From the NCBI GenBank assembly GCA_963753595.1, contig CAVWCX010000007.1, positions 64,001 through 128,000 on the forward strand: a stretch of DNA of 64,000 nucleotides, given 5' to 3'. How positions within the stretch are numbered: position 1 is the stretch's first letter; every line of letters begins with the position of its first letter. Made by a program: the position numbers and the translations under genes. Below, one piece after another: positions 34,596 through 46,696 of this stretch. Under the pieces are notes generated by a model, which worked only from the letters and a program-made list of their open reading frames with translations, ran no database searches and had not been told where the DNA came from. The DNA comes from Candidatus Methanoperedenaceae archaeon. Lineage in GTDB: Archaea > Halobacteriota > Methanosarcinia > Methanosarcinales > Methanoperedenaceae.

Positions 34596-37500
34596 TCATT
34601 CTTCCATATTATCATTGATTAGCCATTGATAATTCGCTCCTATATCATTGATAGGCCCAAAGTGAATTCCCGTGGTATAACCAACAAGATGGTTCTGGCG
34701 TATGATCATCATCTTACCAATGTACCCATGCACTCGTATTCCATCAATATTTAACTCCCCGGTGAGGCCAGTCCGCACAACGCTGGCAAAATTGTTCTGT
34801 ATAATAAGACTATTGCAATTCCCAACGAAGATCCCGTGCCGTTCACGGGTTCCATAAGGTGGCAACAGAACATCTATATTATTGTTTATGATATGCACAA
34901 TCCCTGCACTATCGTGTGTATCGGGAGTTACCCCGCGATGGCTTATGCCAACATGGATACCCTGGATGACTCCTTTTATCCTGTTACTAATAATATTAAC
35001 ATCGCCTGCGCTGCTCCCACCGATAACTATTCCCTGCGATCCTGCTTCCACGTTTAATTTTTCAAGCTCATCATACCATATTTTGAATTGGTCATATTTT
35101 TCTCTATAATTCACATTGAGCAAAACCCGATCAGCGACATGGACCAAATGGAAGAGTAGGTCACGGTCATTTTGAACTCCTTTAGGTTCATTTTTCCTTA
35201 ACCATTCGTTCCATGCATTAACAAGTAATTCGCCTGGTCTGAACTCTACGAAACCATTGCCAGCTTCAATACGAACAACATTTGTATCCTCGAAGACCTT
35301 ATCAGGTTTTCCAAGGTGCGCTGCCGGAATCATCAGGCTTCGAATTGCAGATCTGTATCTTTCGTTCCGTAACAACACATCCAAAGGCAGACTTTCTGGC
35401 ATTTTGCTGACATTTAAAACATTGTCCTCAACATGAGCGCTCTGGACATTAATAAGAAGGATTCCCACCTGCATAAGTCCAATGTGAAGGTCGCAGTTAT
35501 GTATGTGTACGGATTCTACCAGTTTTATCTTTTCATATATGTATAGCTTCTCTGTTTTCTTATCTTCCATTGCAATGAATTTATCGGTTCTACCATCGCT
35601 GATTATTACGGATACCTCTGTTTTGGCTTGATTAAGTTCTAAAGAAATAGTAATTGTTTCAAAATATACTGTTATTTTATTTATACCAATTTTATTAATT
35701 TTTTCCATATCTTCATTAATACTATATTTTTTCTGTAGAAATTCCACGAATTCTTTACCATCGACTCCTGGAATAGCATACCAGCTAAACGAATCCCTTT
35801 TTTCATGGGGATCATAATCAACGGCATCTCGAACATTGATGCATGAAGCCGCTCTTTCAGTACCTGCAGCACAAGTAAGCTCAACATCCTTGATTGTAAC
35901 CTTAGGGCATGCACAAAAGGTAAGTGTTCCATTCAGGGAGTTCAATTTTATTTTCTTGTCAAAGCCGGCAACTCCGCTTTCACCACACATGTCTTTGATC
36001 ACGACGCTTTTACATTCTTCGAATTGGAATATTGTTTCGCCCTCGAGTATTTTGATAATTGTACCTGTGCCGCTTCCACTGATCCTGATATGCCCTTTAT
36101 TTTTTAATACAATTGGTTTATAGGTAACAAATTCACCGATCTGGAAGCATATATTTGCATCCTGCTCGTCTTCTATAGTTTTAAATACGTCTTCCCAATC
36201 TTTTCGAGGCTCGATCACATGGGTACATATGCCCTGGCGATCTTTGCATAATTTGTTCAATGCGTCCTGCACTGTTATTATACTAATGTCTTCTTTTAGT
36301 TTTTTGCAAAGATCGTCATTCTTTTCGATCGGAAGGTCATCAGCATTGAATCTACATAGCAGCGCATCGAGAATATCCTTAACCTTTGAATCTGAACTGG
36401 CAGGGATATTTAATAGAGACCTGACCGTTGGATCAGCTGTCCCGTCGCAAGACGGACGGTAAGGGATATCGCTGCTGTCCAGATTCGCAACCAGGTCATC
36501 CAGGGCATTCTGCACCGTATATGGCAGAGACATACCGGAATCGGGAATTTCATTAATATCCTTCCACCGGTCTTCTTGTATTAAGGGATCATATGGAATA
36601 TCACCGCTATCCAGGTTTGCAACGAGGTTATCCAGGGCATCCTGCACCGTATATGGCAGAGACGTACCAGGTTTGGGAATTTCATTAATATCCTTCCACC
36701 GGTCTTCTTGTATTACGGGATTATATGGAATCTCCCCGGCTTCCAGTTCGCACAGGAGGGTATCCAGCACATCCTTAACAGTTGTATTCTCTGCATCATC
36801 TTTTGGCCAACTTTTTATCTTATCTATAAGAAGCTTCTGAACTGTAGGAATATCATTGCTGGTAAGTATATTTGTACAACCAGGCGGTTTATAGGCTACC
36901 TCGCTGGCCACGCTGAGGTTTGCATTGAAACGGATAGGTATATTGACAGATTTATCGCAGGCATCACGCAGCGTTGCCTCCACCTGCTGACCCTGTGTCG
37001 TTTTGTCAAGCACCCACCTGCAGGTTGCGATTCCCTCCTCGTCTGTATAAACATCAATAAAATCTTTCGGCAATCCGACTTTACCCATGATGGTGCCTTT
37101 CCCAATTGTGATCTGGAAACGCACCTTTGCATTCGTTACATATTGTTTTCCATTGGCTACTCCGACCTGTAGATATCCGGGAAGCTCTTCACCTGGCATT
37201 GCCTCCTGCCCGTCGCCGCAGACATGGAAGAAACTGGTAAGCTCTGTCACTGCAGGGAAAAGCCTGCGGCAGTCGCTGAGAAGCTCCCATTTATTATCGC
37301 TATCTTGCTTCAGCACTGCCAGGCGGCAGTAATGGTGCCTTATGCCTTCAGGCGGCTCTGGTTTTGGTTTTTTGGTTTCATCCATTGGCCATTCAATCTT
37401 CTCTGTCGCGGTGCGGGCCGGGATCAGCCAGTAATCTCCAGCCCTGAAGCTTGTCCCTGAGAACTGCACAAATATACCATCTTCAAGCTCGATAGAATCA

Positions 37501-38528
37501 TGCCCTGTGGCAGGCTTTACTGATATGGCATCGCTTCCCATGTCCCAGCGGCGGACCTTTGGGTGTCGCTTCAAATCTCCTGAAACGGCCTGGTTCAGTG
37601 TGATTATGCGCCCTGCTACATCAGGGGACTCGGTAATGTACGTGAGAGTTCCTGCCGGATTATCTGATAATTCCGTGACATCATCCAGCACTTCAACCCA
37701 ATCGTCTGTTTTCAATGAAAGTGTTTTGTCCTTCCCGAGTTGTTTAACTTTCAGTTTGGTAAGCTTGTCATTTGTATCTTTTATAAACTCTTCGATAGCG
37801 AATACAACCGAACCGTTGTCACGCGACCATTTGAACGTTGCATCTTTAAGTTCACCACCCTTATGGATTTCTACGCGATAGAGCTGGTTTTCAAGCCCAC
37901 GGTAGCCCGCGCCCGGAGAAACACTGCATGGGTTTTTACTCGGAGTCACCTTCTTTGTGAAGGCAGTAAGCTGTGCACCACTTCCAGCGGTGATATTTTT
38001 CCATTCTTGTATGATCGGCTTGCAGTCCACCACAGTTGAAACCTTATAATCCTTTAATGGGTTAAGTTTCACCTGCCAGACCGTTTTGGTTCTTGTGGAT
38101 GTATCCGGTCCCCCAAGTGCGACTTCGCGGATCTGTGGGTCTTCTATCGCAGTCATGTGGCGTTGCCATACATCCAGGTATGCCAGGTAAACACCCTCAC
38201 CGGGCAAATTGGAGAAACCAGGCAGATCATCCTGATCTAAGATATTGATATCTATGGAATTCTCACACAGGATTCCATCTACGTAGATTCTTCCCTCAGA
38301 TATTGTCAGGTTTTCTTTATCAGACGTAGGGTCTATCTTGAATCCACCGCCATCTTGCGGCGCACCGCATGGTCCAATGATATCGAGTGCTTCTTTCTCG
38401 ATTCGGTATGAATTTATATCGTTCTGTTCATTCCAGTCGGCATCAAGCTGGACGCGCCCCTGCTGCATGCGGACACTGCTATAATTTTTTTCAGGTTTAA
38501 ATGTGGATCGTGTAAAATCGCCTTTCAT
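34596..38528 (-). CDS. DUF6519-domain eCIS protein, putative fibre
   Basis: MKGDFTR...MQQGRVQLDADWNE, YRGLENQLYRVEIH, FKWSRDNGSV, GDYWLIPAR; C-terminal beta-helix-like region; GGAGGT RBS before ATG 38528. Confidence 0.85.
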   Translation of the reverse strand: MKGDFTRSTFKPEKNYSSVRMQQGRVQLDADWNEQNDINSYRIEKEALDIIGPCGAPQDGGGFKIDPTSDKENLTISEGRIYVDGILCENSIDINILDQDDLPGFSNLPGEGVYLAYLDVWQRHMTAIEDPQIREVALGGPDTSTRTKTVWQVKLNPLKDYKVSTVVDCKPIIQEWKNITAGSGAQLTAFTKKVTPSKNPCSVSPGAGYRGLENQLYRVEIHKGGELKDATFKWSRDNGSVVFAIEEFIKDTNDKLTKLKVKQLGKDKTLSLKTDDWVEVLDDVTELSDNPAGTLTYITESPDVAGRIITLNQAVSGDLKRHPKVRRWDMGSDAISVKPATGHDSIELEDGIFVQFSGTSFRAGDYWLIPARTATEKIEWPMDETKKPKPEPPEGIRHHYCRLAVLKQDSDNKWELLSDCRRLFPAVTELTSFFHVCGDGQEAMPGEELPGYLQVGVANGKQYVTNAKVRFQITIGKGTIMGKVGLPKDFIDVYTDEEGIATCRWVLDKTTQGQQVEATLRDACDKSVNIPIRFNANLSVASEVAYKPPGCTNILTSNDIPTVQKLLIDKIKSWPKDDAENTTVKDVLDTLLCELEAGEIPYNPVIQEDRWKDINEIPKPGTSLPYTVQDALDNLVANLDSGDIPYDPLIQEDRWKDINEIPDSGMSLPYTVQNALDDLVANLDSSDIPYRPSCDGTADPTVRSLLNIPASSDSKVKDILDALLCRFNADDLPIEKNDDLCKKLKEDISIITVQDALNKLCKDRQGICTHVIEPRKDWEDVFKTIEDEQDANICFQIGEFVTYKPIVLKNKGHIRISGSGTGTIIKILEGETIFQFEECKSVVIKDMCGESGVAGFDKKIKLNSLNGTLTFCACPKVTIKDVELTCAAGTERAASCINVRDAVDYDPHEKRDSFSWYAIPGVDGKEFVEFLQKKYSINEDMEKINKIGINKITVYFETITISLELNQAKTEVSVIISDGRTDKFIAMEDKKTEKLYIYEKIKLVESVHIHNCDLHIGLMQVGILLINVQSAHVEDNVLNVSKMPESLPLDVLLRNERYRSAIRSLMIPAAHLGKPDKVFEDTNVVRIEAGNGFVEFRPGELLVNAWNEWLRKNEPKGVQNDRDLLFHLVHVADRVLLNVNYREKYDQFKIWYDELEKLNVEAGSQGIVIGGSSAGDVNIISNRIKGVIQGIHVGISHRGVTPDTHDSAGIVHIINNNIDVLLPPYGTRERHGIFVGNCNSLIIQNNFASVVRTGLTGELNIDGIRVHGYIGKMMIIRQNHLVGYTTGIHFGPINDIGANYQWLINDNMEE
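36460..36733 (-). repeat. 132-bp (44-aa) tandem repeat in the DUF6519 gene
   Basis: IPY(N/D)P.IQEDRWKDINEIP...SLPYTVQ.ALD.LVANLDS occurs twice. Confidence 0.85.
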
Positions 38529-38547
38529 ATAATTACCTCCTTTTTTA

Positions 38548-40686
38548 TCAAGTGACATAAAATATACCAGCCTCAAGTCCGACGCGCATGTATTCCTCAA
38601 GGCTTGCGCGCAGGTTTGCCTCCCGCTGTGGCTGTTGTAAATGGTGGAATACACCCATCTCTGCCTCATCTTGTGCCCCCTCCCGGATCTCTACAGGGCA
38701 TTGCAAATATAACTGGGCATAACCGGGGTGACCGTAACCCAGGTCTGTAAAGATTGGTTTCAGCCGTACCGCTATTTCATTTTCAATTTGATTCCTTATC
38801 TTCTCCTCAAGTTCTTTCTGTTCTTGAGGCGTCATTCCCGATTTCTTCTTCAGTGCAGCATCAAGCTCTTTTTTTACGGCGTTCTGTATTGCAGTATCAG
38901 AGTTCTTTATTACAGTATCAGGCTGGCAGCGGTACTGGCGTGGAACCTTTGATCCTTTCGGGAAATAACTGAAACGCATACATCCTTCCTGGTTTCTATC
39001 TGCAATCACTTCTCCTGTAAAAATGCTGTTGCTGCCGAGCTTGAAGGACTGTACCGAAACGTTGCCAAGGACGGTGCTCTCTTCTATGACAACCGAAGGA
39101 CCTTTAATTGCAGAACCGCCTAACCCGTCTATAATACTGTCCTTGATAGATAAACGGTATGTACCTTCAAGATTAAGGCTCCCTGTAATAGACCGGTTGA
39201 CTGTAACATCAAGATGTAAATTTCCCTTGAGCGATTCCTTTCCCACAGATTTGGGAGTGGAATCAATATAAAGGTCAATCCCGGGTACCAGGGTGGAATG
39301 CAGCACTTGCAGAGACCCCAGGTCGCCGTCAAGGATATTTATATTGCCACCTGTGATTAGTAATCCGTCGATTATCATCTGACCGCCAGGCTGGTCTTTT
39401 TTAGCTTTATCCCCTTTGATGGTGAGAGTGCCAGCCAGGCGAATGATCGGACGCTCTCCATTGTCTGCCCTGATTTCAAGCGTTATGCCTGCTGGTATGT
39501 TAAACTCAAGTTTTGTATCTTCTTTAAATATATTGCTGTCTTTTATGGAAAATACTGCATCCGGGCGTTGATCTGCCTCCCAGGAAGAGATTGCATCTTT
39601 AATAGTATTTATAAACCCCGGTGATTTAGCGATATTATACTGCTTAATACCTGCATTGGTCTGCCTTATGCCTGTACGGCGGTCGTAAAAACCACCGCCT
39701 ACCTCGCTGCTAAAGCCGTAATAATATGTGACCTGAACATCTGATGGTGGAACCGCGTATGAAAAAGCTATTCGTCCAAGGACCGGATCAACTGCGACCA
39801 TACCATCCGGCGGCAGGTGTTCCCAACCGCTCAAGTCGCAGGGGACTATCTCATCAGCCGGGATGTCCCTGCCGTCTGCCCTGATATGGATGCTTTTATC
39901 CTTACCATAGTATAATTCCTTAGAGGTATAAAAAGCCCGGCGGCGTATCGGGGAAGGTACGTTTACCTCCCCGGCAAGATGGGTGGGGTTTTGTTCTGTC
40001 ACCGGATGGTTGAAAAGCTGGATATCATTGCCAAGCTGGCTGAAACTGAACCGCCCTTTACTGTGCAAAAACGCCGGTGCCTCTCTCACCGGGTATGCCT
40101 GCAAGCGCCACAAATATATGCCGATATTCATGATGTTGTATTTTCCCCTCCTGTTCTCAATATGGCGGACTTCGGCTGTATGGGCGACAGTATCAAAAGG
40201 AGTATCAAGAAGCTCTAATTTTTCACCATCGCGTATATCAGGCGAACGGTGATTATCCAACCGTATGTGATTGATATATTGCGTGGTCCCGAGCAGTTTG
40301 AAGAACTCAACTACCCTTGCATCCCATCCTGTTGTATCATGCGCCAGTTGCTCAAGCATCGAGGCTGTGCCTTTACGCCTGCGGTAACCCAGTGTATTTG
40401 CGACCCGGGCGCGCTGGCTGAACGTAGCTTTTTCGCTGATGGGATGAAGGTTCCTCACGCCCAGCAGGTTACCAATGTAGGGTACGACCCACTCGTCGCA
40501 GGTTTCTATGAACCAGTTATCGTAGAGCCGGGCAATATCCTCATCCATCACATCAGCCTGCTGTGCGAGGACTTCCATGAATGCCTTCAGGACTTCTCCA
40601 TTCTCTGAAACTTCTCCGTTCTCTGAATCACGGATCCTGTAGATTGCGGGCAATAACTGGTAAAGTTTATCTGCGCTGTAGCTCAA
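38548..40686 (-). CDS. eCIS baseplate wedge / tail protein I-like
   Basis: LYQLLPAIYRIRD, FIETCDEWVVPYIG.LLG, RRRKGT and VDPVLGRI motifs. Confidence 0.8.
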   Translation of the reverse strand: MSYSADKLYQLLPAIYRIRDSENGEVSENGEVLKAFMEVLAQQADVMDEDIARLYDNWFIETCDEWVVPYIGNLLGVRNLHPISEKATFSQRARVANTLGYRRRKGTASMLEQLAHDTTGWDARVVEFFKLLGTTQYINHIRLDNHRSPDIRDGEKLELLDTPFDTVAHTAEVRHIENRRGKYNIMNIGIYLWRLQAYPVREAPAFLHSKGRFSFSQLGNDIQLFNHPVTEQNPTHLAGEVNVPSPIRRRAFYTSKELYYGKDKSIHIRADGRDIPADEIVPCDLSGWEHLPPDGMVAVDPVLGRIAFSYAVPPSDVQVTYYYGFSSEVGGGFYDRRTGIRQTNAGIKQYNIAKSPGFINTIKDAISSWEADQRPDAVFSIKDSNIFKEDTKLEFNIPAGITLEIRADNGERPIIRLAGTLTIKGDKAKKDQPGGQMIIDGLLITGGNINILDGDLGSLQVLHSTLVPGIDLYIDSTPKSVGKESLKGNLHLDVTVNRSITGSLNLEGTYRLSIKDSIIDGLGGSAIKGPSVVIEESTVLGNVSVQSFKLGSNSIFTGEVIADRNQEGCMRFSYFPKGSKVPRQYRCQPDTVIKNSDTAIQNAVKKELDAALKKKSGMTPQEQKELEEKIRNQIENEIAVRLKPIFTDLGYGHPGYAQLYLQCPVEIREGAQDEAEMGVFHHLQQPQREANLRASLEEYMRVGLEAGIFYVT

Positions 40687-43600
40687 AGTCTCATCTCCGT
40701 TAATTCGATTCCCCCGGGATTCACGGTAAGGAGTTCGGCAAGTATTTGCCTGCTATTATCCAGACTTGCAATACCGGCTCCCAGGTAAGCTTTCAGCGCC
40801 GGCATATCCCCTTTCAGGTAGAGGGCATTCAGATCAACAGCTATAACCCCTTCTACTCCCTGCATTACTGCAAGCACCTCGCTCTCAGTGACCGCCTGCC
40901 CGAAGCTGCGCTGCTCGAATGAGAATGCCTGCTTCAGAACATCAGTGATAGCAACCAGGACCTTCTCTTTAATGTACCTGCTATCCACCTGCACACTTGC
41001 AGACAGGTTGAAGAAGAGTGGATTAAAAGAATCTATGCGGAACTGCTGTACAGGGTCCTTGGCTCCCTTGATACCAAGCCAGAGGTTCTTATATAGTTCT
41101 GACATCTTATCGACCATCCCTGCATCGGCTGAAGCGACGGTGATATGTACGAAGTGCACCTCGCCATCCCGGAGCCATGCAGCCCGGGCTTTTCCGATAC
41201 CGGCGAAGGCACGGGTAAAATCTTCAAAATCCTGCAATGATACGATGCGGTCAAGCGTGAGTACTTTCTGGGGCGCATTCTGTTTCGCCTGGTCGCGGGT
41301 TTCGGGGTCAGCTGCCCCTGTAGGAGCAAGTGGGTTAATAACTCCTTTCACACCCAGGGGGCGTGTCATCAGGAGGCTTAACTGGTTCGCTTTGACCATA
41401 CCCTGCATTCCGATACCAGTCCTGTAAGTAGCTGTAATATTTTCCTGCCCTGAAGTAAGCCTTGCTCCATTTTTTCCATCACCAAAGGTAAGGGTAGTAT
41501 TACCGTTATCATCTATGCGTATGATATGACCCTGGATGCGCGCATCCAGCCCGTAAAGGGAAGGCACTTCCTGCCATTTTACATCGTTTACCCTTACCTC
41601 AATTGTGCTTTCAGTGCCGCTTGGGGTCTTTGCAGATACATAGGTAAGAGGTTTTTTAAGCATAAAATGCTGGTTCGCCCGGGCACCGCTGCCGCTTCCC
41701 AGCACTTCGCGCACTGTTTCGCCGTGAGTGGCACGCGCCACATTGGCATAGATAGTCACTGTGGCGGGGTCATAGCAGTTCTGCATCCTCTGCTTGAGGA
41801 CAAGAATGGTTCCCGTTTCTGAGATCCCTTCAAGCTCTGCCGCTTCGCTGACAGCCGTATCCTGCGGTGCTGCAGGCATCTGCAGGATACTATCATGAAG
41901 TGCGGTCACCGAACCTGTGAATCCGTCCCTGTCCATCAATGTCCAGCGCAAATCAGTACCAATTTCAACCTGTGGCTCCAATACCTGGAGCACATCTCCT
42001 GGCCGGATGGTTTTTACTCTCTCGCCATCGGAGGATACAAGTTCAAGCCCGGCCCGTGTAACAAGGGCACGCATCCGCTTGCCGCTGATAATAAGGATCT
42101 TGCCTTTGTCAAGCCCGGATACAAGGTTACCAAGTTCAATTTCATTACCTGACAACAAATCGGTGCGCGGCGTTTCGGCAATGTCAAGTTGCTCGCTCTG
42201 GGCGAAGACAATGGTTTGCCGAAGATTATCAAAGTTATCAGAAATTTCTTCGTGTAGGGTCACCCGCGTTGTTTTTCCTGTCAATGTGAAATTGGATTGC
42301 GAATCTTCCACCACATTTTTAATTATATAAGGTTCTTTGTAATATGGAGAAGATAAAATCAACCAACTGTCTGGTAATATCTGCTGATAGACAGCATCTA
42401 AAAAAATATTCTTCTTATCCTGTGAGATTTTGAATCCTGGCCATTCATCGTATTTCTGATAAAAATCAGGTCGATAAAGATTAGCTTCAGGAATAATCTC
42501 ATTCTTATTATCGGGAGTTTGCCAGGACAGTTTGATTATCCCCTCACCAATACCTATGTGATAGTATTCCAGCTTAATATCGTAAATTTGTCCTTTCACA
42601 AGCGATATCGTTGCGCTGTCTTTTGTAGATCCGTGATCCGTCCAGTTATTGATAATCAATTTGCCATCCACCCATAACCTGGTCCCATCATCAGATTGAG
42701 TGTAAAACGTGTAGATCCCGGTAAACTCAGGCTTAACAAAACCTGTCCAGCGAGCTGAGAAGTTATTAAAGTTGACGGCAAGATCAGGAGAACTTGTACC
42801 CTGCCAGTTCACCTGAGTTTCTCTCTTTATCACTTTTGGACTTACCACATTTGGATTGATATTATTAAAATATTCTGCATACAAGCCTGTATCGCTGTTT
42901 GAGGGATTTATATAGTTTTTTTTAACATTGGCCGGCATTGTACGCCAGTCAGGTGCATTATATCCGAAAATGGACGCACGCAAACGAAAAGCATATATCT
43001 TGAGTTCCTCTTCCGTCGTTGTCAGTTCTTTATTCCAGGTTGCCTGTGTGCATCCAGCGGCTATATCAGCAGTAACGGCCTTCACTATTCGAAAATTGGG
43101 ATCACTGCCAGGGTACTTACCCATAAAGAGAAGGCCGTCCCCGGGTTTCAATCTTGTTGCGGTGCTTTTGAGATAAACCTCTTTGCTGCCCATAACCGGT
43201 ATTTTCTTCTCGGTCAGTCTCGGTTTCAATTCATTCCATGCCGCCCTTGCCTCTATCTTTTCGATAGTTTCAAAGGTCTGTGGTTTCTCGTTCTGCCCGG
43301 GAATGCTCATTACCTTTACACCTGTATCAATGGTTGCATAGCCCGGCGTGCCCGGGGCATTATCCAGGGTAAACGCCAGGAATGTACTTGCTGCAACACC
43401 GGGCTTGAGTTCATACCCGATGGCGCGGGCAAGCTCGATCACCGAACTTCGCTCAACAGCCGTGAGAAGGTTGCCCTCATTTGCAATTCTTTCCTGGTAA
43501 AAAGTGAGCACATCAAGCACGCAAGCCCATGCATCGATCAAAGCAATGGACGGATCGTCATCTTCCCTGATGGTCAATCCGCCAAGAGCCTTCAGGCTGG

Positions 43601-43757
43601 ATAGTGCGGCTATCATCGTTGTTTTAAAGCTTCCGTGCGTCCCGACCCTGTAAGAGAGAGCAGGAAGACCTGGAAGGTTTTCAAGCGAAACAGGGGTCAG
43701 GGCAGTTATACCTTTGCAGCAGCCGCAGGTATCATTAGTCTTGTTCTTGGAATTCAT
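40683..43757 (-). CDS. eCIS baseplate J-like protein with PA14 insertion
   Basis: DVLTFYQERIANE, ANVARATHGETV, FGDGKNGARL and DRIVSLQDFEDF motifs; PA14 at about 42474-42887. Confidence 0.88.
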   Translation of the reverse strand: MNSKNKTNDTCGCCKGITALTPVSLENLPGLPALSYRVGTHGSFKTTMIAALSSLKALGGLTIREDDDPSIALIDAWACVLDVLTFYQERIANEGNLLTAVERSSVIELARAIGYELKPGVAASTFLAFTLDNAPGTPGYATIDTGVKVMSIPGQNEKPQTFETIEKIEARAAWNELKPRLTEKKIPVMGSKEVYLKSTATRLKPGDGLLFMGKYPGSDPNFRIVKAVTADIAAGCTQATWNKELTTTEEELKIYAFRLRASIFGYNAPDWRTMPANVKKNYINPSNSDTGLYAEYFNNINPNVVSPKVIKRETQVNWQGTSSPDLAVNFNNFSARWTGFVKPEFTGIYTFYTQSDDGTRLWVDGKLIINNWTDHGSTKDSATISLVKGQIYDIKLEYYHIGIGEGIIKLSWQTPDNKNEIIPEANLYRPDFYQKYDEWPGFKISQDKKNIFLDAVYQQILPDSWLILSSPYYKEPYIIKNVVEDSQSNFTLTGKTTRVTLHEEISDNFDNLRQTIVFAQSEQLDIAETPRTDLLSGNEIELGNLVSGLDKGKILIISGKRMRALVTRAGLELVSSDGERVKTIRPGDVLQVLEPQVEIGTDLRWTLMDRDGFTGSVTALHDSILQMPAAPQDTAVSEAAELEGISETGTILVLKQRMQNCYDPATVTIYANVARATHGETVREVLGSGSGARANQHFMLKKPLTYVSAKTPSGTESTIEVRVNDVKWQEVPSLYGLDARIQGHIIRIDDNGNTTLTFGDGKNGARLTSGQENITATYRTGIGMQGMVKANQLSLLMTRPLGVKGVINPLAPTGAADPETRDQAKQNAPQKVLTLDRIVSLQDFEDFTRAFAGIGKARAAWLRDGEVHFVHITVASADAGMVDKMSELYKNLWLGIKGAKDPVQQFRIDSFNPLFFNLSASVQVDSRYIKEKVLVAITDVLKQAFSFEQRSFGQAVTESEVLAVMQGVEGVIAVDLNALYLKGDMPALKAYLGAGIASLDNSRQILAELLTVNPGGIELTEMRL

Positions 43758-46696
43758 AAGCCACCATCCATGTTAAAATCAATTTTGCCGTTTTCAGGAA
43801 AGTTAGGGTCATTATCGAGCCTTATTACTTCAAGTGTCCCCGGTATCAGGACCCCGTTTTCTATCTCATGGACAGGCAGTTTGCCCCAGCGCTGGAAAAG
43901 CGTCACTTTAACCCATGCTACACCTGCAACTCCCATGGCCGCTTCATACATGCGGCTTAGATATACGGGCTGGCTGAAGGTGAAATTATCGGGGTGGAAG
44001 AAACCGCGCCTGCCGTTTACGAGTTCATGGTTACTGAAAGCGAGAAGTAAGGATTGTTTGACATTGCTTCGGAAGTATCCGGGTTTGACACAGACGTTCA
44101 TTGCGATCTCAAGGGGCACGTAAATCGGGCTGTTAATCTCAATATCATAACCAGCTATCCTGTATTGATCCAGGAAAGTCAGCATTTTTTTCTTGAAATC
44201 ATCATTTACATCGCCTCCGCCTTTTCTGTCGATCGTGACAAATGCCGTATGCCAGCTCCCGGTCCAACGGATGTTCGCTATGGCTTTTTGAACTCCGGGA
44301 TGCTTTTGTGCCATCTCTTCATAATCTGCCTCGGTAACAGCCCGTTCCTGGGTACGGAATGCCTGCGGGGCATAGAGGCGCACCTGTTCCATCGGTTCAG
44401 GGTCAGTGCCGCCAGATGCGGGCAGAGGATTACGCACGCGATTTATGCCGCCACCTTTTATGGCAATACGGGAAATAGCCCCTGTGCCAACATTACCTGC
44501 CCTGCCGTTCCCGATCCTGTAAGTTGCTTTGAATGTGGAACCTTCAATGGGCATTTCGCCCAATATATTATCGCCAAAGCGAAGGTAGGAAAAGCCATCC
44601 AGCTCATTCTCAACTACGAACTCAGCAGCAAATTTGTCACTGGCGAGCAAATCATATTGCACAGACCACTTCGTCGCTTCATTGTTTTTGTCTTTGCTTA
44701 CAAGGTTAATTGCAGGAATAGCTTTTCGTATGTCCCTGAGCATAGCAGAAACGGCAGGTTTCTTTAGATCGGTATCCAGGTTAAACTGTTCACGGTATGT
44801 CAGAGGTCCGGAAATGAGCCTTGGACAGTATGAACCTTTTTCGGGCACCAGATCAGGCACCATGGCTTCAGTAACGGTGCGCCCGTGGTCAACCAGAACC
44901 GCATTTCCCCGCGCAACGGCTATATCTGAGATGCGACTGTCTTTAATGGGGGCTGAAATACACAGGGGAAAGGGAAGGGCATCGTCTTCATGCCATTTAA
45001 TTTCCACAACTGGCGTATTATCCAGGGGGTCTTTCATTTTAGTTACTTTGGTCAGGCGGACCGCATGACGGTGGGAGGGATCTGCATCTTTCCCGGTCGT
45101 CGGGCTGCATACTTCTTCAAATACCAGGACATCCCCTGCATTAAGGAATAATTCATCGATATCAAATAAAGTCGCCTGCGTACTGCCGCGCGGCAGGCAG
45201 CATGCGGTATCGTTCCATGTATAAAACCTGATACGATTGTGGGCGCTGTACAATGTCACAGGATACATAGTCTCGAACACCGTGACGTCACCTGTCAAAA
45301 AAGACCTGAGTTTGTCAGGATCAACTACGGCAGCTTTATCAGAACCGCGTGTAAGAAGGATCGTGCCCTTTGGCAGAGGTCTGCCATATACATTAAGTAG
45401 TCCGCTCTCTTTTTTTATCTGGAGGCTGTAAGTTTGATTATCATCTATTTTTAATATCGCATTTTCTTCACTTTTATCAAGCGTAATCTCTACTGATTTT
45501 CCATAGCTAATGATACTGATAATTTTATTATCCTTTGATATACTGATCGTTGCATTTTTTGCCCATTCGATGCCAAGGACATCCATAAGGAAATTCAGTA
45601 CCCTGCTTTTATCCTTTCCGATTGCGCTGTCCCAGTTAAACCAGTATGCTTTGCCATCTATTGCCTTGTACTCATCAACCTCCAGGCATACCCAGGCACG
45701 CGCATTGCAGCCTTCGTGCATGAAATAATCAAGTAGCCTAGCATGGCGCCGCAAAGATATCCTTTTGCGGGCAGTGCCAAGATACGCATCAGTGGCGACA
45801 GCATCCTGGAAATAGCTCAGGTTATCGCCTACATATGCAAGCATTTCCACCAGCGCAACCTGGAGGTCGGCAGGGTTTCGCTCTCTCCAGTCAGGCATGA
45901 TGACGCTTAACCTGTCCAGCATGAGGCGACGGAAGCTGGCATAATCCTTGGCAAGATAATCTATCTCAGGTTCTGGCAGTTTTTCCGGAGGACATTCACT
46001 TTGCGGCTTGCAGTCAAATTCAGCAGGGCATTTGACCTTGAACGAGAAGTCCACATGCGATAACTGTGGATCAAAGCCGTCGGGCGGCGATAGGTCGGTT
46101 TTTGATTTAACTATACGGAGCGTATATTTTGAAAAATCCCCAAGACTGTTTACTGTAACATTAACAATTTTACCTTCCTGATTAACGGGTTCCATGGGGC
46201 CCACTTCTACGTTCTTGATCCTTACGCCTCCTTCGATAACCACATTGGCTTCCGTTAGCTCCTTGCCTCTTAGGGGAACTGAAAGAGGGAAAATGAAATG
46301 AACCTCTAACGTGCTCTTTCCAGTTTCTCCGTCAACTTTTACCTCAAGGTAATCAATCCCGTTAATCGTCGGAGTGTATATGTTCAGAGTGCCATTTTCC
46401 ATCTTCGCATTGAGTTCAGAGGTTCCATCGCCACCGATTTTGAGGATCACTTTAGTGCTATCATCATTAAGTTCCAGAGAAACAGAATTTGTACCAGTAG
46501 ATACATTTATGGTCTTACCATCGATTTTTTTAATGTTTGCTTTTGTTACCCAATCAAGATCAAAAATTTGTTTTAGACAGTCTATAAGTTTAACATTATC
46601 GTTTCTTAGAATATCATCCCAGCTAAACAAATACGTCAGGTGACTGGCAACTGCCTGGCGTCTGCCCTCTTTATTGCAGCGGTATTGTGTACCCAT
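43754..46696 (-). CDS. eCIS baseplate J-like protein with two ~86-aa inserts
   Basis: NGIDYLEV, IDYLAKDYASFRRLMLDR, YRIGNG and QERAVTEADY motifs. Confidence 0.88.
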   Translation of the reverse strand: MGTQYRCNKEGRRQAVASHLTYLFSWDDILRNDNVKLIDCLKQIFDLDWVTKANIKKIDGKTINVSTGTNSVSLELNDDSTKVILKIGGDGTSELNAKMENGTLNIYTPTINGIDYLEVKVDGETGKSTLEVHFIFPLSVPLRGKELTEANVVIEGGVRIKNVEVGPMEPVNQEGKIVNVTVNSLGDFSKYTLRIVKSKTDLSPPDGFDPQLSHVDFSFKVKCPAEFDCKPQSECPPEKLPEPEIDYLAKDYASFRRLMLDRLSVIMPDWRERNPADLQVALVEMLAYVGDNLSYFQDAVATDAYLGTARKRISLRRHARLLDYFMHEGCNARAWVCLEVDEYKAIDGKAYWFNWDSAIGKDKSRVLNFLMDVLGIEWAKNATISISKDNKIISIISYGKSVEITLDKSEENAILKIDDNQTYSLQIKKESGLLNVYGRPLPKGTILLTRGSDKAAVVDPDKLRSFLTGDVTVFETMYPVTLYSAHNRIRFYTWNDTACCLPRGSTQATLFDIDELFLNAGDVLVFEEVCSPTTGKDADPSHRHAVRLTKVTKMKDPLDNTPVVEIKWHEDDALPFPLCISAPIKDSRISDIAVARGNAVLVDHGRTVTEAMVPDLVPEKGSYCPRLISGPLTYREQFNLDTDLKKPAVSAMLRDIRKAIPAINLVSKDKNNEATKWSVQYDLLASDKFAAEFVVENELDGFSYLRFGDNILGEMPIEGSTFKATYRIGNGRAGNVGTGAISRIAIKGGGINRVRNPLPASGGTDPEPMEQVRLYAPQAFRTQERAVTEADYEEMAQKHPGVQKAIANIRWTGSWHTAFVTIDRKGGGDVNDDFKKKMLTFLDQYRIAGYDIEINSPIYVPLEIAMNVCVKPGYFRSNVKQSLLLAFSNHELVNGRRGFFHPDNFTFSQPVYLSRMYEAAMGVAGVAWVKVTLFQRWGKLPVHEIENGVLIPGTLEVIRLDNDPNFPENGKIDFNMDGGL

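Follow-up and report, generated by a model that had tools for sequence, protein, structure and literature searches.

The stretch of DNA analysed here, called the window throughout, comprises 64,000 nucleotides of a Candidatus Methanoperedenaceae archaeon (assembly GCA_963753595.1, contig CAVWCX010000007.1, positions 64,001 to 128,000 of the forward strand). Two genes of a contractile injection system (CIS) in this window carry three inserts of one and the same protein module. Our analysis indicates that these inserts are very probably old copies of a 262-bp non-autonomous DNA transposon, a transposable element of the miniature inverted-repeat kind (MITE), which is readable as a domain and has a likely partner insertion sequence (IS) of the IS66 type. 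Domain insertion is a major route of protein evolution, and the underlying DNA mechanism is rarely visible in prokaryotes. A preliminary description of the window had regarded the inserts as a lineage-specific mobile module or selfish coding insertion element, and this proposition found support in inverted repeats, an 8-bp target-site duplication, nesting of copies, insert-free orthologues and IS66-like ends.

The three modules are homologous, AT-rich and about 87 residues long; all are encoded on the minus strand, in frame, at the positions given in the preliminary description, and their common origin was confirmed by BLASTP and profile comparison. The Baseplate_J protein contains two of them and the DUF6519 fibre-like protein one. 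Plus-strand translations of the copy regions are riddled with stops, and the module peptides belong to the minus-strand open reading frames (ORFs) 43754-46696 and 34596-38669. Copy 1 (46376-46634, minus strand) consists of a leading G and 86 codons, one codon below the 262-bp standard. Its coding part (46376-46633) corresponds to residues 22-107 of the 980-residue Baseplate_J protein, near the N-terminus, and its ends are complementary at 10 of 14 positions. Copy 2 (45386-45647, minus strand) has the full 262 bp, a leading A and 87 codons; the coding part (45386-45646) makes up residues 351-437 of the same protein, in a loop, with 6 of 14 end positions complementary. Copy 3 (35535-35796, minus strand) is again 262 bp, a leading G and 87 codons, the coding part (35535-35795) providing residues 960-1045 in the C-terminal part of the 1357-residue DUF6519 protein, with complementarity at 9 of 14 positions. 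Each copy is flanked by the remains of an 8-bp target-site duplication on the minus strand. The degenerate upstream 8-mer of copy 1, CACCTGAC (46635-46642), matches the downstream ACTCCGAC (46368-46375) at 4 of 8 bases, while 6 of 8 bases match between GGCAAAGC (45648-45655) and GGCAGACC (45378-45385) for copy 2 and between GAAAAAAG (35797-35804) and GAAAAGAT (35527-35534) for copy 3.

The expectation that the copies align significantly with one another held for copies 1 and 2 (BLASTP E 4e-13, 27/87 identical) and for copies 1 and 3 (E 5e-06); it failed for copies 2 and 3 alone (E 2.8, not significant), which are linked only via copy 1 or the profile. The described contrast between AT-rich inserts and GC-richer genes was likewise borne out, the GC content being 0.337, 0.345 and 0.287 in copies 1, 2 and 3, against 0.464 and 0.440 in the host genes and 0.4375 in the window. 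A profile built from the three copies recovered each of them (copy 1 with E 4.1e-41) together with four more places in the same genome, at E values from 4e-41 to 2e-4: inside a TPR/DUF4332 protein, in a 195-residue secreted protein, at the very start of a 229-residue membrane protein and, weakly, in a virus-like region. No DNA copy beyond these was detected by nhmmer in this genome. The TPR/DUF4332 protein also contains, about 100 bases past its full copy, a 45-nt piece of another copy's 5′ end that is still in frame (locus L004, 2103-2146; G000:C18:20603-20646). The diverged copy of the virus- or plasmid-like region (L007, G000:C36:195835-199080) lies in a 357-residue protein encoded between MCM-like helicase and terminase-like genes, and a close relative of this protein occurs in another genome (L112).

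The DNA anatomy of the element provides the first line of evidence for transposition. One strand of the 262 bp is open as a single frame of 87 codons from the second base to the last, and the ends are imperfect 14-bp inverted repeats, 5′ GTATTTGTTTAGCT ... AGCTAAACATATAC 3′. Counted from one base ahead of the first codon, the first 14 bases correspond to the last 14 read as reverse complement, usually with a single mismatch; hence the 5′ end, encoding Y-L-F-S, and the 3′ end, encoding (K)-L-N-I-Y, are mutual reverse complements at the DNA level. Codon usage was compared between ends and interiors in 44 elements. The codon for Leu2 is TTG in 31/44 ends (16/271 for interior Leu), that for Ser4 is AGC in 19/22 Ser (35/173 in the interior), and ATA encodes Ile86 in 33/37 Ile (112/386 in the interior), while Lys83 is encoded by AAG in 22 elements and AAA in 2, the interior counts being 108 and 318. 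Since the synonymous codons chosen at the ends are those that keep the repeat, the inverted repeat is no by-product of conserved peptide motifs. In the predicted RNA fold of the 262 nt the ends pair (−51.3 kcal/mol, z −2.88, none of 200 shuffles being as stable), a terminal stem that follows from the pairing of the transposon's inverted repeats. The majority-rule sequence of the element is also open in the antisense frame of the same phase, yet only 7/44 natural copies are; an active master copy might thus be readable in both orientations. In two further genomes a variant with element ends (YLFNW..., ...ENGKLNI) and a different, longer middle stands in frame in proteins of about 390 residues (L110, G038:C186:17400-19200; L114, G036:C50:3600-5300), and it may represent a second sub-family of the element.

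The target-site duplication was established statistically. In a first test with 47 elements, the register offset by nine bases was the only one raised (identity 0.475 against 0.306 in controls), with eight positions raised and none of 5000 permutations reaching the observed value. The base adjoining the first codon lies outside the duplication (match rate 0.15, controls 0.23). The final test employed 79 non-orthologous elements, obtained from 140 hits of which 114 were full length and 92 distinct, 13 orthologous sites being dropped. The flanking 8-mers matched at 4.01 of 8 bases on average, compared with 2.68 in non-self pairs, a value reached in 0/10,000 permutations; matches of at least 6/8 were found in 17/79 elements as against 2.7% of controls. 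Ahead of the first codon stands a G or A in 69/79 elements, facing a terminal C or T in 79/79, so this base belongs to the inverted repeat. As this base pairs with the terminal base and falls outside the duplication, the length of the element is fixed at 262 bp, and 262 bp plus the 8-bp duplication gives 270 bp, exactly 90 codons. The duplicated 8-mers of the 79 elements are A-rich, mainly at positions 1, 2, 4, 5 and 7, and correspond to codons of the Lys/Glu/Asn type; this could reflect either a target preference or selection for hydrophilic loops.

The same ends were found on an autonomous element. An exact search of the fetched loci with the 14-mer returned, besides element copies, the end of a 1402-bp contig encoding an IS66-family transposase, and this contig, used as a DNA query, detected relatives in 12/49 genomes of the genus. 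Two complete IS copies of 1615 and 1614 bp are bounded on either side by the exact 14-mer, the two ends being inverted relative to each other, and one of these copies is flanked by the perfect 8-bp duplication AAAAAAAC. In 8 genomes, 10 contigs have IS66-family elements that end in the exact 14-mer. With NF033517 the transposase reaches 242 bits (cut-off 180), with PF03050 102 bits, and the accessory protein of the IS matches the DUF2080 transposase-associated family. Beyond the 14 bases, IS ends and element ends remain similar, more so when compared in matching orientation, with only about 14-30 terminal bases common to both. Neither the IS66 transposase nor the DUF2080 protein resembles the module itself. 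According to PMC11946415, the inverted repeats of IS66 members begin with GTAAGCG and 8-bp repeats are generated; the element and its partner IS start with GTAT instead of GTAA, a partial fit to that description. Close transposase relatives were also found in 2/11 genomes of a sister family, and family f7 has only relatives of 36-38% identity. We conclude that the IS66-family IS is likely the mobilising partner and the source of transposase in trans. Another IS66 locus (L117) yielded no matching ends in a repeat search, and a scan of the present genome with the 14-mer at up to two mismatches gave 32 hits, compared with 38.3 in shuffles. An IS6-like IS beside one copy was considered as the partner and rejected, as it has 8-bp duplications but different ends (GGGGCTGTC...). 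It is present in three copies of at least 99% identity (DDE_Tnp_IS240; G000 C28:51957-53296, C6:45378-46698 and C1:33001-34339, the last adjoining locus L006), each with 8-bp duplications. Between the C28 and C6 copies the flanking 8-mers have changed places, which points to a recombination or inversion involving these two.

Copies of the element also occur nested in one another. A full copy splitting another copy was observed in 32 cases among 31/221 proteins, the pattern being the first part of the profile, a complete copy and then the remainder, as confirmed in the sequences and visible also in the DNA of whole genomes. The outer copy is interrupted between profile positions 26 and 59, in many cases within a predicted loop. 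Inner and outer copies mostly resemble each other no better than random pairs do (median identity 0.45 against 0.43), yet in 8/36 inner/outer pairs the identity is at least 0.64, the 95th percentile of random pairs, with 0.87 as the highest value.

Comparison with insert-free orthologues, one of the checks proposed at the outset, succeeded for two of the three copies. Three Baseplate_J orthologues from the same genus, with about 55% protein identity, were aligned. Those in genomes G057 and G013 lack both inserts, and that in G054 has an insert at the copy-1 site and none at the copy-2 site, so that copy 2 is absent from 3/3 orthologues and copy 1 from 2/3. Deletion of copy 2 in silico made the alignment to the orthologues continuous again. 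For copy 3 no insert-free orthologue was obtained; orthologues of the DUF6519 protein are alignable over residues 46-613 only, and the copy-3 site is outside that span. A PDB sequence search with the Baseplate_J protein gave matches confined to its C-terminal half, away from the insert sites. In public metagenome data matched at 85% likeness, which represents relatives and not this strain, a contig of run X1 joins window position 46372 to 46647. It has 16 other letters in place of the 274 bases in between, so that this relative lacks copy 1, and copy 2 is covered by other contigs of X1; in X3, a contig ends at 46372 with a similar loose end. From the orthologue and metagenome states together it is evident that all four combinations of copies 1 and 2 exist; copy 1 may have been gained twice or lost once.

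Structure prediction with AlphaFold2, based on six module sequences from this genome, gave a mean predicted local distance difference test (pLDDT) of 94.2 and a predicted template modelling score (pTM) of 0.83. The predicted fold has three short helices followed by a six-stranded beta meander; the 87-residue module is thus predicted to fold by itself, and its N and C termini would lie close together. A nested protein, P0033, folded as a single sequence, reached a pLDDT of 44.7. That the domain corresponds to no characterised Pfam family was upheld: no Pfam-A or NCBIfam model exceeded its cut-off on the copies (best E 0.03, with a library lacking the newer PF27311 and PF26607, two accessions that appear in precomputed lists). 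Searches with the module model gave no convincing match by Foldseek against the PDB (best E 0.14, frataxin), a best Z of 5.3 in a wide search with VIA-align, below the noise guide of that tool, a best E of 0.08 in BFVD and no usable match in the ESM Atlas; these blanks do not prove a new fold. Intein signatures are missing, as described earlier. No Hint or intein family matches the copies, which have neither an N-terminal Cys or Ser nor a C-terminal His-Asn; their first residue is Tyr (Asp in copy 3) and their last is Tyr.

Selection on the module was examined in two sets of orthologous fixed copies, six pairs each (12 pairs). The ratio of nonsynonymous to synonymous substitution rates (dN/dS) was 0.15-0.45 in the elements and 0.15-0.49 in the rest of the host protein. 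Since the orthologous copies evolve at dN/dS like their host proteins, the module is probably translated and retained in the protein, not excised. Non-orthologous copies diverge from the majority sequence by 0.18, 0.18 and 0.29 at codon positions 1, 2 and 3, and every match listed in three genome surveys is free of stops. In one group (L006, L009, L011 and L016) the element dS of 0.13-0.51 lies below that of the rest of the gene (0.33-1.10), a possible sign that the DNA itself is constrained or that copies undergo gene conversion with one another.

The element is widespread in the lineage. The profile of the three copies, applied to 1.84 billion proteins, matched 2100 representative proteins at E≤0.001 and 1553 at E≤1e-10. 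The preliminary description had mentioned similar modules in many Methanoperedens hypothetical proteins, and the survey agrees: at the DNA level the element is present in 48/49 genomes of the genus, with 419 matches and 1-29 per genome. In the class Methanosarcinia it was found in 109/301 genomes, distributed as 31/32 in family f1, 8/11 in f2, 10/12 in f3, 2/2 in f6, 18/134 in f4 and 39/105 in f7. A sample of the phylum (41/401 genomes) adds family f17 of another class (29/49) and gave none in several large families (0/70, 0/31 and 0/27). Named contigs with the element belong to Methanoperedens, Methanoperedenaceae, ANME-2, Methanosarcinaceae, Methanosarcinales and one metagenome-assembled genome of Methanobacteriaceae. 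Among viral contigs 11 pattern matches were obtained and none was confirmed. The hosts are functionally unrelated and include KAP NTPase, GAF, radical SAM, primase large subunit, AAA ATPase, Tail_P2_I and Baseplate_J proteins. In genus g12 of family f4, a single 84-codon copy is fixed in a lipoprotein-like protein of about 476-481 residues in several complete genomes (L101-L104), with inverted-repeat ends that are still recognisable.

These observations agree with the description of a MITE, as the element is small, multi-copy and free of a transposase gene, has inverted repeats and a duplication of fixed length, and shares its ends with an autonomous element. We propose that an IS66-family transposase, supplied by the IS of other Methanoperedens genomes, would move it in trans. 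On landing in sense, with the first base of the duplicated 8-mer also the first of a codon, it would leave the host gene open, and the host protein would gain the module plus three residues per insertion. Copies in tolerant sites, such as surface loops, termini and large accessory proteins like the baseplate and fibre proteins of the CIS, would persist and from then on share the evolution of the host protein. The module would have no function of its own in the CIS.

Several observations weigh against this interpretation. The window copies are degraded, with 4, 6 and 6 of 8 bases left in the duplications and 10, 6 and 9 of 14 in the inverted repeats. Neither PF03050 nor a DNA search with the IS detected the partner IS in this genome, and close relatives of its transposase occur in only 5/32 genomes sampled from the family; because the IS was not found in this assembly, the window copies are probably immobile now. 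The second complete IS copy has no duplication (1/8), so that the duplication is seen in one of two copies. Among 45 non-orthologous element copies compared, no pair exceeds 82.4% DNA identity, so that the reference genomes give no evidence of recent jumps. Translation and retention, too, are deduced from the pattern of selection. Finally, there are almost no non-coding or out-of-frame copies, unlike what a randomly inserting MITE would leave. Hand sums over 19 genomes gave 159 matches at the DNA level and 157 in-frame matches at the protein level. When the weakest 7 DNA hits were fetched, 5 proved to lie in the sense frame of long ORFs; the other 2 are one orthologous 60-nt intergenic fragment. 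This fragment, of the 5′ end of the element, lies upstream of a conserved gene for a 90-residue membrane protein in two genomes (L115, 733-796; L116, 773-825) and is the sole non-coding remnant seen.

The in-frame bias may result from survivorship, old copies lasting only where selection on the host gene protects them, and this fits since no non-orthologous pair is above the identity limit just given. Targeted or translation-linked insertion is another possible cause. A further step, which we take as tentative and put at slightly less than an even chance, is that the transposon has adapted to coding sequence, with a self-folding, insertion-tolerant cargo, a length and duplication tuned to 90 codons, and genes as its main niche.

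Among the alternatives, the one that survives best accepts movement by transposition and holds that the module is kept because it is useful, for instance as a binding or recognition domain on the CIS and other proteins, the insertions being adaptive. Insertions into CIS proteins recur across genomes: the best 120 hosts include a CIS-type AAA ATPase, four proteins of the Tail_P2_I family and several annotated as "baseplate assembly", and a Tail_P2_I-like host occurs in another genus. The purifying selection on fixed copies points the same way, as do the copy at the start of the small membrane protein, kept in at least 4 genomes, and one copy fixed across Methanosarcina-type genomes. On the other hand, no targets tolerate insertion better than large accessory structural proteins, the CIS orthologues of sister species work without the inserts, and no fold or family match hints at a ligand. 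Moreover, the hosts span cytoplasmic enzymes, regulators and secreted proteins, which speaks against a single site of action. For the same reason the suggestion in the preliminary description of a localisation or self-recognition tag gained no support, with hosts ranging from secreted and structural proteins to cytoplasmic enzymes. We therefore regard an adaptive role as unlikely.

It is far less probable that the module is an ordinary lineage-specific domain, spread by duplication, recombination and shuffling, whose end symmetry reflects conserved terminal motifs. The family is indeed large and old, as its 2100 clusters and the median identity of 0.43 between random copies indicate, and some arrays look recombinational, such as the partial tandem copies in L097 and L098. 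This explanation is already contradicted by the repeat-preserving synonymous codons at the ends, the duplicated flanking 8-mers, the precise full-length copies within other copies and the identical ends on an IS66 element. Removal of the insert before the mature protein is formed, in the manner of an intein or, at the RNA level, of an archaeal bulge-helix-bulge intron, could be invoked for the compositionally foreign inserts with their pairing RNA ends, but is equally hard to credit, given that the terminal stem is accounted for by the inverted repeats, that Hint matches and intein-type terminal residues are missing, that purifying selection at the amino-acid level is unexpected for excised RNA, and that the frame is kept open, with no stops among the matches listed (150 in each of two surveys).

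The non-autonomous transposon that we favour has relatives among known elements. Its closest analogue is the Rickettsia palindromic element (RPE), a likeness in the mode of insertion, taxa and lengths being different. In the MITE review PMC10969869, which refers to Ogata et al. 2000, RPEs are, like the present element, short mobile repeats found in frame in many unrelated genes to which they add a conserved peptide, and their insertions are judged compatible with the fold of the host protein. RPEs are bacterial elements of about 150 bp that encode a short peptide and lie in ORFs in only about half of the cases, whereas the present element is archaeal and, at 262 bp, codes for a module of 87 residues whose predicted fold is self-contained (pLDDT 94). 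It also has clear inverted repeats, the 8-bp duplication, an IS66-type partner and self-nesting, and is almost never outside ORFs. Prokaryotic MITEs in general are likewise small, transposase-free and multi-copy, with inverted repeats, a target-site duplication and ends common to an autonomous IS; according to PMC10969869, typical MITEs are mostly intergenic and reach ORFs incidentally, while our element maintains one conserved frame and consists nearly entirely of in-frame gene insertions. The putative partner, an IS66-family IS, has a transposase gene, a DUF2080 gene and an 8-bp duplication; the element carries no transposase.

Palindromic amphipathic repeat coding elements (PARCELs) resemble the element in having coding dyad symmetry, in spreading among genes and genomes and in adding variable protein segments. 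They are 25-residue units in tandem arrays, and their abstract mentions no transposon-type ends or target duplications, in contrast to the single discrete unit found here. Inteins are similar as selfish in-frame coding insertions that spare the host protein. They excise themselves by the chemistry of the Hint domain and home via endonucleases. The element differs in having no Hint signature, in apparently staying in the protein and in spreading by transposition rather than homing. The element was not described in the literature searched, a search with subscription journals mostly outside its coverage, and no paper in it paired "miniature inverted-repeat" with Methanosarcina, Methanoperedens, ANME or Methanothrix. 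The traits that set it apart from known elements are a complete folding domain, near-confinement to ORFs, self-nesting, an archaeal host and an identifiable IS66-type partner.

Both host genes belong to the CIS gene cluster at 34596-61173 (minus strand). The cluster is complete, encoding sheath, tube, Pvc16, AAA ATPase, eCIS_core, gpD hub, gpV, PAAR-like and gp25 proteins, and also PA14 and Tail_P2_I proteins. The host of copies 1 and 2 (43754-46696, minus strand) is the CIS baseplate protein of Baseplate_J or gp6-like type, 980 residues, with a Baseplate_J match at E 2.6e-08. The host of copy 3 (34596-38669, minus strand) is a fibre-like or baseplate-peripheral CIS protein, 1357 residues as listed, with a DUF6519 match at E 1.4e-69. 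Because the listed ORF overlaps the end of the preceding 712-residue gene by about 120 bases (38548-38669), its true start is probably an internal Met codon about 40 residues further in. Between the baseplate genes, at 40683-43757, a 1024-residue CIS protein contains a PA14 domain (E 8.6e-30), which is of a carbohydrate-binding type and might be relevant to how targets are recognised.

The system is a natural example, of a rare sort, in which a jumping gene supplies proteins of methane-cycling archaea with an extra domain: a defined transposon with a named partner family would have added one folded domain to hundreds of unrelated proteins, even to itself. Like a natural map, its copies mark where CIS baseplate and fibre proteins and many enzymes tolerate insertion. 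For annotation they are a warning: Methanoperedens proteins that are long and labelled "hypothetical", or oddly long, may owe their length to transposon-borne modules in otherwise ordinary proteins. The near-absence of non-coding copies may reflect how the element is targeted or filtered. Should the transposon indeed be adapted to coding sequence, it would constitute a natural engine of domain insertion, with a ready-made, evolution-tested insertable domain, that repeatedly remodels large accessory proteins such as CIS baseplates and fibres.

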